Shown here: piece after piece, positions 32,497-41,900 of the stretch
Numbering within the stretch: the first letter of the stretch is position 1
Layout of the letters: every line of letters starts with the position of its first letter
IMG/VR virus record: IMGVR_UViG_3300029288_000001
Span: 32,001-96,000 of that record
DNA: 64,000 bases
From: a virus
Lineage: Duplodnaviria > Caudoviricetes
Direction: 5' to 3' (one strand)
The notes under the pieces: model-generated
Databases searched by the model: none
What the model was told of the DNA's origin: nothing
Seen by the model: the letters and a program-made list of their open reading frames with translations, nothing else
Made by a program: the position numbers and the translations under genes

Positions 32497-33894
32497 TTAT
32501 TCTCCCCCGATTCCGTCTTCCGTCACGGTAAAGATCGCTTCTCCTTCTGGGAGACACGGCGAGTCTACGATCTTGGCGATCCTCTGCTCTCCTTTTCCTT
32601 TCCTCAGATACACGCGCATAGTCGTGCCGTGGGCGACGATGTTCCCCCCTGCCGCTTGAATTGGATTTCCGTAGAATGTATCGGGCTTCGATTGAACCTG
32701 ATTCGTAACGATGATCGCTAAGTCGGGATAAATGTCGCACAGTCTCAACAGATCGTGGATGTGGCTATTAAGGGTTTGTTGCCGATTCGCTAAGGTCCCT
32801 CTCCCAACATACTCGCTTCTAAAGTGTCCTACGAGAGAATCTACGATCACGAGTTTTATGTTCCTCTCTTTCACAAAATTTTGGTTTAATAATTGTTTCG
32901 CGAGGAGGATTTGGTGATCGCAGTTATACACGCGTCCATAAAGGATATTCTTTAACGCCTTATCGGGATCGATTCCTTTAGCTTTCGCCATGCTGATAAT
33001 ACGCTCGGGTCGAAAAGTTCCTTCTGTATCTAGATAAACGGCAGTGCCTCCTAGTCCACCGCTTTCCTTGGGTAGCTGGACGTTCACGCAGAGCTGATGG
33101 GCGATCTGTGTCTTTCCGGTTCTATATTCCCCAAAGAACTCGGTCATGCTTCCCGTTTCTATACCCCCTCCCAACAACTCGTCTAACTCGTGGGAGCTCG
33201 TGGTTATTCGCGCCATGTTCCTTCTATGTTCCCAGACTTCTGTTCCAGATTTGAAACATACGTTAGCTTTTTCCATCGCGTCTTTTATAATCTTCTCGGC
33301 GGTCTTTTCTCCCAGCCCGCTCTCTTCTTGGATGATCTTGGGAGGAGTCATGGCAATAGATTCGAAACTACTAAAACCTGCCTTCACGAGCTTCGTCGCG
33401 GTCGCTTTTCCTACGCCTTCGATTGTCATTATTAACGCTACGGCGTCCGCATCTGCGCCACTCATGTCTATCTTCTCGTCGTCGTCAGTATCCTTGTCCT
33501 TGTCTTTACTCTTGGATTTCGCCTTCGCCTTCTTGGTCTTAGTCTTAGTCTTGGGTTCTGCATCCTCGTTCTCGTCCTTACCTGCGAGATCGAACTCTTC
33601 TTCTTCTATTTCTTCTAAGAAATTAACATCTTCCTCAATAGGGGCGGGCTTCTCTTTCACCTCTTCTTCGAGACCGACCTTCTTGGGAGGATCCTCCTCG
33701 ACTACGAGTTCCATCTCTTCTACTACTATTTCTTTCTTCTCTTCTTCGTTGGTTTTTACTTCCATATTTTTATTCACTTCCGCGCCACCGACCCCTTCTG
33801 GGACTTCCTCCTTCGCGAACTTCAAATGCTCTTCGTAGATCTTTCCCTTCTGGTGGTTGTGGTGGCATTCCGTACAATAATATTCCTTTTCCAT
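32497..33894 (-). CDS. radA: RadA recombinase with long N-terminal extension
   Basis: HhH domain, Walker A GEYRTGKT, DTEGTFRPER, VIVDS, GRGTLANRQQ, TNQV, GGNIVAH, DSPCLPE. Confidence 0.97.
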   Translation of the reverse strand: MEKEYYCTECHHNHQKGKIYEEHLKFAKEEVPEGVGGAEVNKNMEVKTNEEEKKEIVVEEMELVVEEDPPKKVGLEEEVKEKPAPIEEDVNFLEEIEEEEFDLAGKDENEDAEPKTKTKTKKAKAKSKSKDKDKDTDDDEKIDMSGADADAVALIMTIEGVGKATATKLVKAGFSSFESIAMTPPKIIQEESGLGEKTAEKIIKDAMEKANVCFKSGTEVWEHRRNMARITTSSHELDELLGGGIETGSMTEFFGEYRTGKTQIAHQLCVNVQLPKESGGLGGTAVYLDTEGTFRPERIISMAKAKGIDPDKALKNILYGRVYNCDHQILLAKQLLNQNFVKERNIKLVIVDSLVGHFRSEYVGRGTLANRQQTLNSHIHDLLRLCDIYPDLAIIVTNQVQSKPDTFYGNPIQAAGGNIVAHGTTMRVYLRKGKGEQRIAKIVDSPCLPEGEAIFTVTEDGIGGE

Positions 33895-33984: not shown

Positions 33985-36442
33985 TTATTCTTCTTTTAAA
34001 TATTTTGGTGTCTTATACTCCGCGTATTTATCTAACCCTTTCTTGGGTATGAATTTATCTACGATCGGATAATGCTTGTGCTCTAAGATGTCTTTTACAT
34101 CGAAGTAATGAATAGTAATCTCGTTCTCGCGTTTTAACCGCGCTACCTCCGCTCTAAAATCCGCCGAGAATTCCGTCGCGATGAAGATCCCTTCCGTCTG
34201 CTTCTCTCTTAATAGAGTCCCGCTAAACGCGTCTAGATGAGCGCGCCCCGCCTTGAATTTCTTTACTTGGATAAGGCACTCCCCCAGATTGCCGTCTATG
34301 CCGCCGTCGGCGCCTCTATTGCCCGAGAAGCCTCCAAACTCGCGTATGACGAAGTTCTGGAACTCGTAGCCGTCAAGCTGGGCGATCTCCTCGGGGGTGA
34401 TGGGTAGTCCTTCTATGATATCGAACCTTACTTTAAGGCGCTTGGCGATCAACCTACACGCAGTAGGAGATACATCTATTCCGATCCATTGCCTGTTGAG
34501 TTTCTTCGCTACGGCGATCGTTGTGCCACAGTTCCCATTCAATATTACTTTTCCTTCTCTTCTTATAATGATTATATGGGAAGGAACTGTTACACAATAT
34601 ACATAGTCGTTCCAATCAATAATTTCTGCGTGTTTTAATGTAGACTCGGTTCGTTTAATCGTTCCGCTGATGCAATAACATATACTCTTCGACCAGAATA
34701 ATCGACCATCCTTTGACATTTTTTTCTCCGTTCGTGGTAGTCGTTTTGAAATCGTAACACATATACCAAGCTTAACCATTATTTCTGCTATGTTATCAAT
34801 TAATTGTTTTGAAATGCTATAGATCCGTATTCCATCTTCCCTTGTCATTCCATCTGATAAGATTAAGCCTTCTAATACATCTTGTAAGTATGGTTTATCG
34901 TAGTTTAGAACTTCTCTTGGTATCGTGCGTGTTGGTTGTTTGTGGCATTGTTTAAGATAAGTAAAGATCTCTTCGTTGTTAAAGGTATATCGTCCTTCAG
35001 TTTTCTTCCAAACTATGTTCATTTTGTTTAAGAAGTTTTTAATGTAACTATCGTTGTCTTTTATTTGGCGTATTCCTACACGATACCCCGTTGATGTTTT
35101 TCCTTCGTCAATATATCCATCACCTAGCCAGAATCCAAGGAACTTACACCATGCGTGTGGGTCTATGTTATTTGGTGGTTTCGGTATATTTCCAGAGCTA
35201 ATTCCATTGCAGTTTCTTTTAATTTTCGCTAGCCATTTTATGTCCTTAGCTTTGATAAAATCATAATCTGTATAATGAAATGTTGGGGCGGTCTTTCTCT
35301 CAGCCGCATACATGTTATGATCGGGCGTGACTAAAATGTCATACATTGTGGATTTCCAGTGATACATCTTTCCATTATGGATATATTTCTGTTTCGTTAT
35401 AGCATCTACATATTCAATGGTATTACCTTCTACTTGGGCGATCCTTTCGTTTTCTAGGTTCTTAAATTTTACCCATCCGTTCTCTGTTAATAACTCCGTT
35501 TCTCCATCGTAACATCCACAAAACGCGTCAAGGACGACATCGTTCTCGTTGGAACTGGTTTTGATTATACGTTCTAAGAGCGCTTCTGGCTTCTGTGTTG
35601 GATAACCAAGTCGTTCTTTTGATGACGGATGTAAATACATTCCATCCCATACATCTGAGCATGGTATATTAGCATCGAGATATTTTTTATAATTAGGTAA
35701 TCCTCCACTCGACCATTCGAACTCTCCACCATTCCTTACGAATTCGTCTATCTTATTTTGAGTCCATACCCAACCGTGTTTATTATCTAATTGAACTGTT
35801 TTGTCTTCCGTTGGGAAGTATCTACTTTGACCTTTTGAGACATCTACATAACTATTAGCTTTTATGATAGTTATACTTCTATAATATCCTTTGTTATCTT
35901 TTTTCTTGTATTGACCAGATAGATCTTTGGACTTTTCTTTTTGAATGTTAAATATATAATCGTCTGATTTGGTATAAATCAATATTACATCGTGGATTAC
36001 TCCAAATTTATTAGTGCCAGTTCCTTTAGCGTTCGTTCTCAACCAGCATATACGATTTAAAGGATCTCTATCGAATATTTGATCGCATAGAACTCTTAAA
36101 TACGCGTCCGCGTGCCAGTCGCAATGGAGATAGAAGCTTCCCGTTTTTTTAAGAACCCGATATATTTCCTTAATTCTCGGTTCCATCCACTCCAGATACA
36201 CGTTGATATCCTTCTTCGCCCGTCCGCTCCCGTTCTTGTTCTCGGTAATCCAACGGTCTCCAAACTGCCGTATTTCCGCGCCGTCGCCCCAAATGACCTC
36301 GTAGTTCTTGATCGCGAAGGATTAGTAAAATCTAATCGGTTTTCGTGAAGAACGGAGGGTCTATGTAGACGAGATCGACGGACTCGGATTCCAAGGTCTT
36401 GAGGACTTCTAAATTATCTCCACATATTATTCTTTCTATCAT
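33985..36442 (-). CDS. N6/N4 DNA methyltransferase (beta class) fused to an Mrr-like nuclease domain; contains an intein and a predicted 31-nt intron
   Basis: Exon 1 (36442-36342) reads MIERIICGDNLEVL...DLVYIDPPFFT. Exon 2 has YLHCD, YPTQKPEALLERII, DAFCG/CGTT, and a C-terminal GYEFQ...DGGIDG...IQVK. Confidence 0.88.
34531..35514 (-). mobile_element. Intein (328 aa) with LAGLIDADG homing endonuclease
   Basis: Splits the SAM motif DAFCG|CGT. Starts CYDGETELLTENGW and ends VYCVTVP...GN|C; contains FLGFWLGDG and LEGLILSDG. Confidence 0.93.
36311..36341 (-). other. Predicted BHB-type mRNA intron, 31 nt
   Basis: GUUCUU CACG AA^A...GAUUAG-loop-CUAAUC...CGCG AU^C AAGAAC. Removal deletes an in-frame TAG and fixes the frame, giving DPPFFTNKNYEVIWGD. 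Confidence 0.75.
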
Positions 36443-37855
36443 TTTAATAACCTCTCTAAATATTCTGGATGATCCCTTTTCCATATTACGCCTTCTATTG
36501 AATATGGACTAATTCCTCTTTTTATAAGATCATCGTCTAATTTCTGAAAGATATTTTGTTTTCTTTTTCTTTTCTTCATTTCCTTAAACCTCTTTCTTGT
36601 TTTATGATCGTTTTAAACTATTTAAATAAAATTATTAATTAGAACTTACTTAGCGAAGGAGCAGATTCGTTAAATACTCCCATTCCTGTTTCTCTTCTTC
36701 CGTTACCTCTTCTTTCTTTAATACCAGCTTGGTGCGTAGGTAAATCCAACGATACGCGCGTTTCTTATCTATCCTTTTCGCGAGAATTTCTAACGCTTCT
36801 TCGCTTGGAAGACCTTTCTTTAACTTTTCAAAGTCTTCTAACGCTTCCATGAATTCTTTCACGGATTATCTCCTTCCAATTTCAAGAAATAAATACCTTC
36901 CTTCCCAATGTCATACCCCCGTATCCGATATTTCCGCTCGGGGTGGTTCTTGGTCGCGCGTTCAAGGCACGACTCGCAGAGCGCGATCACTTTAGAACCG
37001 CACCGCCAGCGCATTAATTCGCCTTTCGCGTCGTAGATGTCCACCGGGAGACCATCCTTGATACAGTCTTTTCCGCAGCACTTTACCACGTTATTTCTTC
37101 TCCAACTCCTTTTTATCGATTCCGCTTGCCAATTTATTAAAACACGCCCTACAAATTCGTTTCCCTTCGAACATAAACACTTGCCGTCGCTTCAATTTGG
37201 CAACGCACAACCCACAATACTTTTGTTTGGGTTCTCTTTTATAATCCGTTACTATTGGGCTCATGGTTCCTTTCTACCTCTCGGTCTCTTTTTTAATCCT
37301 CGTCGTCTTCTTCTTCTTCGTCGTCCTCGTCCTCGGTTATGGTGTCCATCGCCATTTCCCGTTCGTCTCTCGGAAGCTCGGATATCATGGACGCTCCCAG
37401 CATTCCAAACCACTCGCTATCGAGGACTACGGTGAGCTCGTTGTCTCCTTCCTTAATGCGGAAGTAATACTCACCTTCGTCGTTGTGACCTACAAGGTAA
37501 CGGATCTTCTTTCCTATATAATTTCTTTCTTCTTTCGTACCCTCCTTTTCGTAGCAGTCCCCGCACATTCCATGTTGTGTTATGGACTTTTTAATATCGC
37601 TAAAAAAAGACGAAGACACCACAATGGGAAGGATGGTTTCTCCTTCTTGAAAAGATATTGGCTCATTCATAGTATCAGACCATTTTCTTTTACATATTGG
37701 ACATTCTATATTCATATTTTTACACCTTTTTTATTCCGTAGTTCCCCGACTCGATCTGAGTCTAGGTTTAAAATAGGAAAAAAATGATTTGGTTTGGGTT
37801 TATATGTGTTTCGATTGAGGTAAAATTGTTCGTTTTCGTTCGTGATCGTCATAGA

Positions 37856-38653
37856 GCGGGCGCGGATCTTCTATGGTTTTCGGATTTAGATTGGCTCGCG
37901 TTAACAATCTGGTTTTCGAGCATTAAGTGGCTCGCGATTATATGATGGTTCTCGGACCCGTAGTGGCTCGCGCTTCGTTCATGGGTTACGGTTGTAAAGC
38001 GGCTTCGCGTATATAGAGTGGTTCTCGAACCTCTGGTGGCTCGCGTCCAAGTTTTGGTTTTCGATTAGAAAATGGCTCGCGTTTTGTTCTTGGGTTTCGA
38101 TCGTCTAATGGCTCGCGGTTTATCGGTGGGTTTCGAATGCTCTGTGGCTCGCGGTGCTAATATGGTTCTCGATTTTAGATTGACTCGCGGAAATATTGTG
38201 GTTTTCGGGGATATCATGACTCGCGGGCACATTGTGGGTTCCGAGATAGCTATGGCTCGCGTATATCCAATGGGTTTCGAGGTTTCTGAGGCTCGCGGGG
38301 TTCATATGGTTTTCGATTTTGTTGTGGCTCGCGTCTGCATTTTGGGTTGCGAAACGACCTTGGCTCGCGTAGTTAATGTGGGTTTCGAGGGTATCGTGAC
38401 TCGCGTTCTTATCTTGGCTCTCGAACTTTCTGTGGCTCGCGAAGGCGAGTTGGGTTTCGAATACCTTATGGCTCGCGTTCTTTATATAGGTTTCGAAAAG
38501 AAATTGGCTCGCGGTTATTGAATGGTTTCCGAATTTTATATGGCTCGCGACAAGGCACTGGGTCTCGAATTCTCATTGGCTCGCGTTATTGATGTGGGTT
38601 TCGAGAATATCATGGCTCGCGGTGATTTAATGGGTTTCGATCCAGTCTTGGCT
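37856..38653 (-). ncRNA. TIGR-like dual-spacer array 1 (22 units of 36 nt), orphan
   Basis: Plus strand reads TGGCTCGCG-N9-TGGKTTTCG-N9 repeatedly, with loop repeats from 37874 to 38631. Spacers are variable. Confidence 0.9.
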
Positions 38654-38948
38654 ATATAAACACCATTTCCTCCAGTCTCTCGTCCATCGACGGCGTGGTT
38701 CTCTCTACGACCTGGAGCGACATCGCTACGTAGCCTTCCGCTAAGAAAGCTTTATTGTCGAGAAGGTAGGTCACTTTACAGAGGAGCTCTCGCCCCATAT
38801 ACTTCTCGGTCGTAGGATTATAGTCCTTCAACCGCAGGTAGTCTCCCACTTTATAGTTACGATCGTTCTTTCTTATTTCGAACAACTTAACGCCGTTCCA
38901 CACGGGATTGAAATATTCTGTCCAGCACTTTAGATCGTGCGTAGTCAT
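38652..38948 (-). CDS. ASCH/PUA-fold DUF3850-like protein
   Basis: HDLKCWTEYF...GVKLFEIRKNDRNYKVGDYL...GYVAMS. Confidence 0.88.
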   Translation of the reverse strand: MTTHDLKCWTEYFNPVWNGVKLFEIRKNDRNYKVGDYLRLKDYNPTTEKYMGRELLCKVTYLLDNKAFLAEGYVAMSLQVVERTTPSMDERLEEMVFI

Positions 38949-41900
38949 ATTTTATACTTCCTCCAATATACTTAATTCTTTTTCTATAGGAAGGTCGGGT
39001 AATTCCCCTTCCGTGATCTTAATTAACTCGGGATATAAAGACATCAACCGCATGAGCTCGTCTTCCGCGGCGTCTATGTCGCTCCAAGATTTGAGGCTCT
39101 TTAATCTTTCTTGCACGCGCCACCGAATTAACCCGAGAATTATCCAATGAAACACGCTCGCGCGTCGGACGAGCCGTATCCATAATTTCGTCTGATAATC
39201 CCAGCTATATTTAATAGCATACCATTTATTAGAAACTTTCGTTCTACGAGCGTCGTACCACGTAAATAGCGTTAAATACCGAGCTTGGAGCTTGTTATGA
39301 AGTCTATTTCGCCACAGATAGTATCTTTGTTTTATAGGACGCTTGATCGCCCGTTCGTAACACTTCTCGCACAGGAGCCTATCCCATTGATCGCCCGCAG
39401 TAAAACCTACTCTCGCGCGAAGGTCGGTAAGCGGTCTAGCGCATCGTCCACAATATTCCGTGCGATATACGCTTTCTTCTTTTTTCTTAACTTCAAAAAT
39501 AGGCGAAAACAGCCCTCCATCTTGAGGTATTTTATCAGCCAAGATTAGAGGTTTATCTTCTTCTTTTATAGCCTCTTCCTTGAATAATCTAGGATTCATG
39601 ATATAGGTTTGATCGTGTTTCCATTCAGCAGGATCGAACGGTTTGATGCTATTTAACGGTAATTCAACGAACTCAGAATCCTGTTTTTCTGTAGTAGTTA
39701 TTGGTATTCCACTGCCCGACACAACACCATAAGTGTATCCTTCGAACTCGTACACGACCTCTCCTTCGTGATAATCGCGGTCTAACCAATCGCATTCTTT
39801 CCGCGTAACTTCTCTCTTCACGATTAGTTTTCTTGGCATGTGTTTATTTCTCTCCTTATTTTGTTTTCTTCGTCATAAAATACGCTTCCGCAGTTTTTAT
39901 AAATGCGTCGAGCTGGGCGCTTATCCGATCTTTTAATTGGTCTACGAACTCCACTGCTTCCGCGTATGAATCGAAATCGTCGGGGGAAACATTGTTTTGA
40001 CAACAGCCGCAGCCGTCGTCGGAGACTTTAACCGAACCGTCGTAATCTATGCGCGGAAAAAACGTTCTTCCTTGACTTATCATCTTAGTTAGATAGCTCT
40101 TCATTTACTTTCCTCCAGAAATATTTTTTCTTGGATTAGATCGTCCAGAGCTTCGAACAGATTCTTAGCCTTTCTAAACCGTTCGATCGTGCCGTCCGTT
40201 AAGAAACAATGATCGTATTCGAGTGGGCGGACTCGTTCTTCTTCGTTCTCGTTTATCGTGATCTCGTCAGTGACATATAACTCCTCTTCGTTTCTATGCA
40301 CTAATCGTCTCGGCATTTACTTTCCTCCTTTTAATAGGTCCACGAGCGGAAATGTATCGAAGACCTTTAACCGATCTTGGTCCACGCGCACGCACATACT
40401 TCCTACATTGAAATAGAAGCGAAAACACTTCGAGGTCGCGTAGTACACTACTATGATCTTGCGGTGGAAATTGTTTAAAATATTACCGATCTTCTTCCGT
40501 TTGTTGCACGCTTTATACTTACGAACCTCGTAGGCTTGGCACGAGCTTCTCGCCTGCATATATTTTCCGATCGATATAGGGAATATGTAATATCTATATC
40601 TTGGTTCTTTTGATTTATACCAAGCTGGATGGAGATCGTACCACATCTTATCAACCACGTTGTCCGACAAATATATAGACAGAGCGTATTTCGCCTCTGT
40701 AAACATATCGAACAACGGATCTTGGCGAAGTCTTAATTGCCTCTCGTAACTAAGCTTAATATACTCCTTCCGTTCCTTTAACTTCTCCGCCCGTTTACTT
40801 ACCACCAACGCGGCGGCGTCCTTTTTCTTTTTTATTATTTCCTCGATTTCCTCTTTCGTTTTCATTTATTCCTCTTCCTCCTCTTCGTCTTCTTCGTTGC
40901 CTACGATCATGGTTAGAGCCATTAAGAACGTGTCGAGCTCGCCATCTCCCCCAAGTCCTTTATCGTCGCATTTGGAGCAGATCCCTCCGTCTATGTCTTC
41001 GTCCTCGTCCCCTAGATCGCCACAAAAAAGACACGCACCTTCGTCGGCGCGATTTATTAACTCTTTTATTTTATCTATTTTTTCGGTATCATTACTACTC
41101 ATTTTTTCTTCTCCTCCCACCAGTATCGACAGGTCTCGCACTGGTAAGTAGTCTTTTTCTGATCGTCTCGTAACTTTCTTATTCTTACGCTGAAACATTT
41201 ATGGCAGTTCCCTTTCAAAAACAACGCACCATCGTCAAGTCCACTACACTTCCATTCCACATACGCATAGAAACACCGTATCGCGTGGTATATAAACCAT
41301 ACTAAGGCACCTACGCATATAACGATTATTATACATAACATAATCCGTAGTTGTATCTAAAACTCTCGTTGTTTTTTAAAAAAAAATACAATTTAATTAA
41401 GTTTTTTTTCTATTTAAGCATTTTTATTCGTTTTAACAATCACTGTTATCGAACGAGAACTCTTTTCCACATTCTGGGCAGAAATGAAGCTCGTCCCAGT
41501 CCGTTACGGTGTATTCCATAGTAGCATAAGTTCTCGCGTTTTCGTATCTTGGATAGATCTTCATTCCTTTATAGTATAACCTTAAACCATTACTACCGTC
41601 TCGATGTGGGATAAAACCGTGCTTCCACGAGCTTATTAACGCGAACTTCGCGCCTTTAACCACGCTACATTCTTTCTTGTTTAAGAATAGTAATATCCTC
41701 AGCAGTTTTAACGAGCGCCTTTTAACCGCGATGTAAGGATACTCGGGACAGTAGAGCCCGTCGTAGTTCTTACAATGAGGACATCTATATTCCATATCTA
41801 CCATAGATTCCTTCTTTTCCAATCCTTCGTTAAACGGGTTATTTTCTGGGTTAAACTCGCAGGTCTTACACTCCTCGCATTGGTCGAAGGTATCTAAACA

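Follow-up and report, generated by a model that had tools for sequence, protein, structure and literature searches.

One of the questions raised by this viral locus is how an array of guide RNA units comes to lie at the very end of an unrelated gene, far from the gene for the protein that would use it. Which effector could such an array serve, how would it be transcribed, and is its position an accident of one genome or something that recurs? TIGR arrays are a non-CRISPR guide RNA family described in 2025 (Faure 2025, Science, PMC12045711), and the published surveys were confined to the 5 kb flanking tas on either side or to arrays 'surrounding tas loci'. The window analysed here is a 64,000-nucleotide stretch of viral DNA, corresponding to bases 32001-96000 of a 224,826-bp IMG/VR record that has direct terminal repeats and is rated complete; coordinates refer to this window unless the genome is named. 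In an earlier note, prepared from the sequence of the window, an orphan array of 22 units had been described some 24 kb from its effector, and it is this feature, here called array A, with which the account begins.

Window 37861-38653, minus strand: array A, a distal dual-repeat TIGR array of 22 units, 21 of them 36 nt and one 37 nt long.

Read on the minus strand, array A extends from 38653 down to 37861, a length of 793 nt, and the 22 units claimed for it are borne out almost to the base. The bounds originally proposed, 37856-38653, are right at the start, but the end at 37856 takes in five bases that do not belong to the repeats. Each unit has the form AGCCA-spacerA(9)-CGAAACCCA-spacerB(9)-CGCG, such that between units the edge repeat is completed as CGCGAGCCA, while the loop repeat occurs in the variants CGAAACCCA, CGAAAACCA and CGAGAACCA; periods of 36 and 108 nt are recovered by TRF, and the single degenerate 37-nt unit is unit 19. 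Counted column by column, the 49 regular units from all three arrays that the genome proves to contain show that the edge CGCGAGCCA and the loop CG[A/G][A/G]A[A/C]CCA are near-invariant, with an A-rich interior to the loop repeat (A/G-A/G-A), and that the two 9-nt blocks between them vary at every position. Within these repeats CG is found at columns 10-11 and 28-29 in 47-49 of the 49 units, and CCA at columns 16-18 and 34-36 in 44-49. The pattern of edge, nine free positions and loop has 29 matches on the minus strand of the genome, against none for a reversed-pattern control. Array A is the best kept of the three arrays, with an edge identity of 97.8%, 17 consecutive 36-nt units in register, and CG..CCA present in 20 of 21 loops. 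The final base of spacer A is T in 32 of the 49 units and that of spacer B is A in 26, a bias from which it follows that the repeats may effectively be 10 nt long with 8 free spacer positions, as in the arrays of a second viral contig considered below.

The ends of the array are as informative as its interior. Its 5' end is a half edge repeat, AGCCA, at 38653-38649, and its 3' end is the other half, CGCG, at 37864-37861; the AGCCA start and CGCG end that had been noticed in two arrays are in fact common to all three. According to the published rule, a half edge repeat stands at either end of a TIGR array, and cutting takes place inside the edge repeat. The half edge repeats at the array ends therefore place the cut inside the edge repeat, and the mature unit predicted previously, AGCCA-N9-CGAAACCCA-N9-CGCG (36 nt), agrees with this rule. 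The minimal arrays that have been published required full edge repeats, and unit 1 of array A, because its 5' edge repeat is incomplete, may not mature. A search of array A against Rfam matched no family, and its RNA is without a strong fold (z -1.4), as has been published for pre-tigRNA. Array A is a real TIGR array and belongs to a known family; what is less familiar is where it lies. It had also been considered as a CRISPR array, a candidate that was rejected as each 36-nt unit holds two 9-nt repeats and two 9-nt spacers and there is no Rfam match.

Could the same region instead encode a protein built of 12-residue repeats? Open reading frames are certainly present, one of 149 aa on the plus strand and others of 55-61 aa on the minus strand, and these arise because 36 nt equals 12 codons. 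However, each of the six frames of array A contains between 4 and 12 stops and none is open across it, array C behaves likewise, and even the best frame of array B has two stops. Moreover, the 37-nt unit breaks any frame running across array A, and what is conserved is two 9-nt nucleotide blocks with variable blocks between them. A repeat protein as the product is scarcely credible. The 149-aa frame itself was set aside as a by-product of the 36-nt period.

What, then, is the relationship between array A and the tas gene? The relevant features of the genome are the following.

Window 62176-62714, minus strand: TIGR array B, 15 units, unit 1 of which overlaps the last tas codons.

Window 62696-63916, minus strand: tasA, 406 aa, the sole Tas gene of the genome, encoding a coiled coil and a Nop domain.

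Genome 95992-96785, minus strand: TIGR array C, 22 units, the last 9 nt of which (…GATCA-CGCG) are window 63992-64000.

Genome 96799-97674, minus strand: ParB-like gene, 291 aa, ending ~14 nt before the first AGCCA of array C.

A relaxed pattern scan and a generic 36-nt periodicity finder both return exactly three arrays in the genome, all on the minus strand and with the same repeats, which at 22, 15 and 22 units amount to 59 guides. The earlier note had counted two; the third is array C, which lies mostly past the end of the window. The core locus has the order ParB-like gene, array C, tasA, array B, with array C between the ParB-like gene and tas and directly upstream of the latter. The TAA stop of tas is placed inside the first loop repeat of array B, CGTAACCCA (window 62696-62718). 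The same is seen in another complete virus with a Tas homologue of 38% identity, where the TAA of tas falls in the first loop repeat, AGTAAACCA, of the array that follows; the overlap of the tas coding end with unit 1 is thus conserved in the two homologues.

The distance of array A from tas (62696-63916) is 24,043 bp, in keeping with the 24 kb originally given, and this is the nearest and only tas, with none inside the ~5 kb customary for such arrays. The word orphan is nevertheless too strong, since array A is the distal third array of a genome in which tas itself is flanked by two more. As these flanking arrays carry identical repeats, array A belongs to the tas system, though it lies outside the locus as published. 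The earlier observation that the array has the same repeats as a tas-linked array and different spacers also stands: the repeats are identical, no 9-mer is common to array A and arrays B and C, and all 22 guides of array A are unique. Near-matching spacers between arrays, at 19 pairs, are at the level of the shuffled control (14.9 +/- 3.8).

Array A might be supposed to be a relic, a fragment that was translocated from the tas-linked arrays and has fallen out of use. Its distance from tas would fit such an origin, as would units 19-22 and the 77-nt trailer behind them, which look partly decayed. Against this, neither array B nor array C is as well preserved, the 22 guides of array A are unique and not copies, and its ends are clean half edge repeats of the kind found in the tas-flanking arrays; the relic reading is accordingly improbable. 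More improbable still is that the guides serve a Tas of the host or of a co-infecting element that the virus does not encode. On either side of the viral tas gene stand arrays whose edge and loop repeats are the same as those of array A, and because of this a foreign effector is unnecessary. The loading of array A transcripts in trans had been proposed already, and it is upheld by the complete genome: searches with tblastn and with a family profile, filters off, revealed no second Tas (next best E 0.34). With one tas and identical repeats, trans loading by the distant Tas is therefore the only option internal to the virus.

The nature of this Tas protein is clear from several comparisons. It has no Pfam match, including no match to a nuclease domain, and with phmmer it is related to TaTasR (9mty) at 1.3e-23 and to TasH at 2.5e-11; its 96 homologues are mostly of 290-350 aa. 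An AlphaFold model built from 45 homologues has a mean pLDDT of 86.9, and when this model is compared with the PDB by Foldseek the top 11 hits are all TasR or TasH, followed by IS110-type recombinases and Nop5. VIA-align superimposes the model on residues 112-322 of TaTasR with a Z of 19.1 and an rmsd of 1.8 A, and on residues ~59-307 of TasH with a Z of 17-19. The aligned part of the model comprises residues 17-381, and the matching parts of TaTasR and TasH begin after their RuvC and HNH domains; the model consequently points to a nuclease-less, TasA-type Tas, without RuvC or HNH. Its N-terminus is formed by a long helix that carries an insert, part helical and part beta-hairpin, for which the family shows no conservation. 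SpTasH cuts pre-tigRNA with Y289 and H296 (PMC13421893), to which Y362 and H369 of the TasA model align, and both residues are at least 90% conserved in the alignment of 45 homologues. For TasA proteins, RNA-guided DNA binding and repression of transcription have been described (Xu 2026, bioRxiv 10.64898/2026.09.09.750476). The 291-aa neighbour upstream of array C is putatively ParB-like, from its resemblance to the ParB/ParB_N clusters (Atlas score 0.94, 188 shared features), Pfam and PDB sequence searches having given nothing. The small proteins encoded beside array A match no informative family, and no second Tas is found among them.

The gene that array A directly follows is a quite different matter, and it raises the question of whether the two are functionally connected.

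Window 38652..38948, minus strand: DUF3850/ASCH-superfamily gene, 98 aa (PF12961 4.7e-25; phrog_986).

Window 38952..39839, minus strand: upstream 295-aa gene with a weak DUF6011 zinc-finger match, in the same tight operon.

The DUF3850 gene has a GGAGG 12 nt before its ATG, and starts 3 nt past the end of the 295-aa gene, which any transcript running on into array A would have to traverse. That the array begins within its stop codon had been claimed and is correct, as the TAG at 38654-38652 overlaps the array by 2 nt. This overlap is one reason for entertaining the DUF3850 protein as a dedicated partner of array A, for example in binding, stabilising or processing its RNA; others are that the ASCH fold is annotated as RNA-binding (phrog_986) and that the protein is ~18 aa longer at its C-terminus than most homologues, the nearest of which are 46-58% identical and mostly of 80 aa. 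Linkage in other genomes, where the earlier note had suggested looking for it, is nil when checked in both directions. Among the viral records compared, PF12961 is found only in the virus of array A, being absent from four of four other viral records that have arrays of this repeat family or a related Tas, and the loci of the six nearest DUF3850 homologues have no 36-nt periodic array (0 of 6), the next gene coming within ~90-180 nt in all of them. Furthermore, arrays B and C of the same virus come after tas and the ParB-like gene, those of the second contig come after the gene for the large terminase, a Zn-ribbon protein, an HTH protein and others, and in published systems Tas alone is enough for processing. 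The DUF3850 gene looks like an incidental neighbour of array A, and a dedicated role for its product is unlikely.

How is an array in such a position transcribed? The answer depends in part on the host, on which several genes of the virus have a bearing.

Window 58276-60480, minus strand: full-length MCM helicase.

Window 60500-61693, minus strand: AAA_22 ATPase adjoining MCM, in an Orc1/Cdc6-like position.

Window 32497-33894, minus strand: RadA/Rad51-type recombinase with an HhH N-terminus.

Since the virus encodes an MCM helicase and a RadA-type recombinase, the host of this 225-kb virus is, judging from its gene content, probably archaeal. Close to the recombinase gene is a gene for an N6/N4 DNA methyltransferase (window 33985-36201, minus strand), which is split by an intein-like homing-endonuclease segment (LAGLIDADG / Hom_end) and has an Mrr-like C-terminal domain.

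Array A lies inside a block of more than 40 kb in which all crude gene calls are on the minus strand, and between the DUF3850 stop codon and the array, which share that strand, there is no gap. Like arrays B and C, array A directly adjoins the stop codon of a gene running in its own direction. A search of the minus strand between 36.5 and 41 kb for a sigma-70-like promoter found none, the sigma-70 model being one that may not apply to an archaeal host. Given the absence of a gap, the common strand, the tightness of the operon and the lack of a sigma-70-like promoter, read-through is the most economical model, and co-transcription of array A with the upstream operon, including the ASCH gene, is plausible from this arrangement.

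An alternative is that array A serves the same effector from a promoter of its own, with TTTATATA acting as a TATA box, if the host is archaeal, and transcription starting in unit 1. The element spans the last ASCH codons directly 5' of AGCCA, the MCM helicase and RadA-type recombinase suggest the kind of host that such a promoter would call for, and co-transcription and embedded promoters are not separable by sequence alone (Xu 2026, bioRxiv 10.64898/2026.09.09.750476). However, arrays B and C have no TATA-like box at their starts, and across the genome the motif TTTAWATA shows no positional peak upstream of 304 crude gene calls; TTTATATA is perhaps a chance occurrence in AT-rich coding sequence (codons for V, F and I followed by the stop). 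A dedicated promoter is therefore rather doubtful, although the most probable of the alternatives, and read-through from the operon is preferred.

The downstream side is marked by a run of thymines.

Window 37778..37784, minus strand: T7 run, a possible oligo-T stop, ~77 nt past the last CGCG of array A.

In archaea, oligo-T tracts can terminate transcription, and T runs are found after all three arrays, 22-77 nt downstream (T7 for array A, T5 and T7 for array B, T8 for array C). The T-rich tract that had been reported to follow array A is real in so far as the T7 run exists, but it is ~77 nt away from the last CGCG and is accompanied by no hairpin terminator, the scan for which uses a model that may not apply to an archaeal host. 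The 77-nt trailer in between holds decayed repeat-like pieces, CGAAACACA and AAACCCA. A similar element also precedes the T run in the trailer of array A (window 37785-37860, minus strand) and in that of array C (window 63967-63991, minus strand), AACCCAAACCAAATCATTTTTTT in the one and AACCCAACCCCAAATTCAAATCAGTTTTTTTT in the other, and this shared element may be a decayed repeat or a common 3'-end signal.

Taken together, array A is probably a functional dual-repeat TIGR array that is transcribed by operon read-through, loaded in trans by TasA and cut by its Nop domain, and that directs DNA binding without cleavage. In this scheme the array would be transcribed as a 3' extension of the operon ending with the DUF3850 gene, and the precursor would be bound in trans by dimers of the single TasA encoded 24 kb away, as the identical repeats and the single tas suggest. 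The precursor would then be cut in each edge repeat, between CGCG and AGCCA, by the Nop-domain loop that contains Tyr362 and His369, a step suggested by the homology to Y289 and H296 of SpTasH and by the half repeats at the array ends. The expected product is ~21-22 tigRNAs of 36 nt, each AGCCA-spacerA-CGAAACCCA-spacerB-CGCG. By homology, the resulting ribonucleoprotein is expected to recognise DNA sites of 18 bp in which each strand pairs with one of the two spacers, and because the Tas has no nuclease domain it would bind without cleaving. The outcome would be repression or blocking, possibly together with the adjacent ParB-like protein.

What do the guides recognise? The 225-kb genome, its arrays masked, was searched for matches to all 52 regular guides, with both orders of the half-sites allowed. 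No site in the virus genome had 0-1 mismatch, and the counts at 2-4 mismatches equalled those for shuffled guides. As the virus's own genome offers no better-than-shuffled match, the targets of the array A guides are presumably in the host or in competing elements. Any given 18-mer is expected by chance ~17 times in a 596-Gb genome collection, and the false-positive problem in target searches has likewise been raised by others (Xu 2026, bioRxiv 10.64898/2026.09.09.750476).

Is the position of array A peculiar to this virus? Scans of IMG/VR with Tas and with the ASCH protein, each as a single protein, returned zero close viral relatives, and blastn of the array region against GenBank phages gave no match. 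A Tas profile scan detected three Tas loci only. A tas-independent pattern scan of IMG/VR recovered the repeat family of array A in four other records. Among the records with arrays is a GC-rich viral contig of 105,936 bp, rated 76% complete (IMGVR_UViG_3300021560_000014, here G001), in which arrays form at least 11 clusters, distributed over both strands, from 2.7 to 97 kb.

G001 2.7-7.1, 18.4, 73.2, 76.8, 86.6-89.0, 95.4 and 96.9 kb, both strands: array clusters.

Its single Tas homologue, at 87589-88632, is flanked by arrays and has a profile E of 1.8e-13. The start of at least six of the G001 arrays is only a few bases from the stop codon of a gene with the same direction, and the genes that precede arrays include those for the large terminase, a Zn-ribbon protein and an HTH protein. 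In five arrays the stop codon of the preceding gene draws on bases of the initial half edge repeat (TGAGCC or TAGCCA), the situation also seen in array A. A motif of ~24 nt, GGTGTGGGCAGGAAACGGGGCCGCA, or its reverse complement, also recurs beside many of the G001 arrays, preceding some and, in inverted orientation, following others; a promoter, a terminator and the end of a mobile element are candidate roles for it.

G001 ~6920, ~7105, ~18565, ~73470, ~76755, ~76860 and ~89015, among other places: GGTGTGGGCAGGAAACGGGGCCGCA motif.

Two array clusters separated by 11.5 kb are present on a 29-kb fragment (G003), the examined portion of which contains no tas, and in three other records, two of them complete, arrays are found only adjoining tas. 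Distal TIGR arrays thus recur. A literature search found no publication on orphan TIGR arrays and none on the multi-array G001 contig; such arrays fall outside the published view because searches covered only ~5 kb around tas.

The significance of array A lies in showing that an array of full size, and well maintained, can lie in an unrelated operon 24 kb away from its effector. Guides are therefore missed by catalogues compiled from ~5 kb around tas, in which some Tas genes may be wrongly listed as lacking arrays, and an array finder that is independent of tas is needed. A broader generalisation, which is put forward only tentatively and may well prove wrong, is that large viruses routinely scatter TIGR arrays as 3' trailers of unrelated genes, with one Tas serving all of them. 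If this were true, (i) the supply of guides would be tied to the expression class of each carrier operon, (ii) surveys centred on tas would fall far short of the true guide repertoire, and (iii) some of the 'array-less' Tas lineages of Xu 2026 may keep their arrays elsewhere; why one Tas branch seems array-less was left open in that work (Xu 2026, bioRxiv 10.64898/2026.09.09.750476). The locus also represents a clean natural test case for trans loading, as a complete genome here holds one TasA, three arrays and 59 unique guides. Research on TIGR-Tas is young, and array A leaves the known mechanism unchanged.

How does the system compare with those already known? With the dual-repeat TIGR-TasA arrays (Faure 2025, PMC12045711; Xu 2026, bioRxiv 10.64898/2026.09.09.750476) it shares the 36-nt unit of edge, spacer, loop and spacer, the box C CCA and a covarying box D in both repeats, the half-edge ends, the A-rich loop, and a Nop-only Tas with a Y/H processing loop. 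By definition such arrays have two distinct repeats of 8-12 nt in alternation, with ~9-nt spacers between them, and in array A both repeats are 9 nt long. Arrays lie on both sides of tas, with one running into the 3' end of the tas coding sequence, as they do in TIGR-TasA loci, and the ParB-like gene in the locus is reminiscent of the tasParB-tasA subtype, a layout mentioned previously (Faure 2025, PMC12045711). Box D is CG here and UG in TaTasR, a divergence with covariation that the published definition of TIGR allows. The differences from published loci are chiefly of position and size, in that array A is 24 kb from tas behind an unrelated DUF3850 gene, has 22 units in a genome of 59 guides where TIGR arrays usually have 5-15 units each, and, unlike published arrays, has no hairpin terminator that could be found after it.

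The structurally characterised relatives, SpTIGR-TasH of the Salicola phage CGphi29 (9w03/9w04/21kl) and TaTIGR-TasR (9mty), share the Nop and coiled-coil fold, the 36-nt tigRNA and the Tyr/His dyad for metal-independent cutting of the edge repeat. SpTasH and TaTasR, however, have HNH or RuvC nuclease domains and cleave DNA, whereas the TasA described here has neither and should only bind. Orphan or distal CRISPR arrays follow the same logic of a far array with a shared repeat that is loaded in trans by effector genes elsewhere. In contrast to CRISPR, array A has no palindromic repeat of 25-36 nt, no single spacer of ~30 nt and no cas genes, and TIGR guides come as two separate halves of 9 nt, each pairing with a different strand of the DNA. 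Finally, G001 has a near-identical repeat family, there GCG[C/T]GAGCCA and GCGAAACCCA. It differs in being GC-rich, in its 10-nt repeats and 8-nt spacers, in having no DUF3850 gene and in a Tas that is only distantly related, yet both genomes have one array-flanked tas, and in G001 further arrays are found up to ~80 kb away from it at the stops of unrelated genes.
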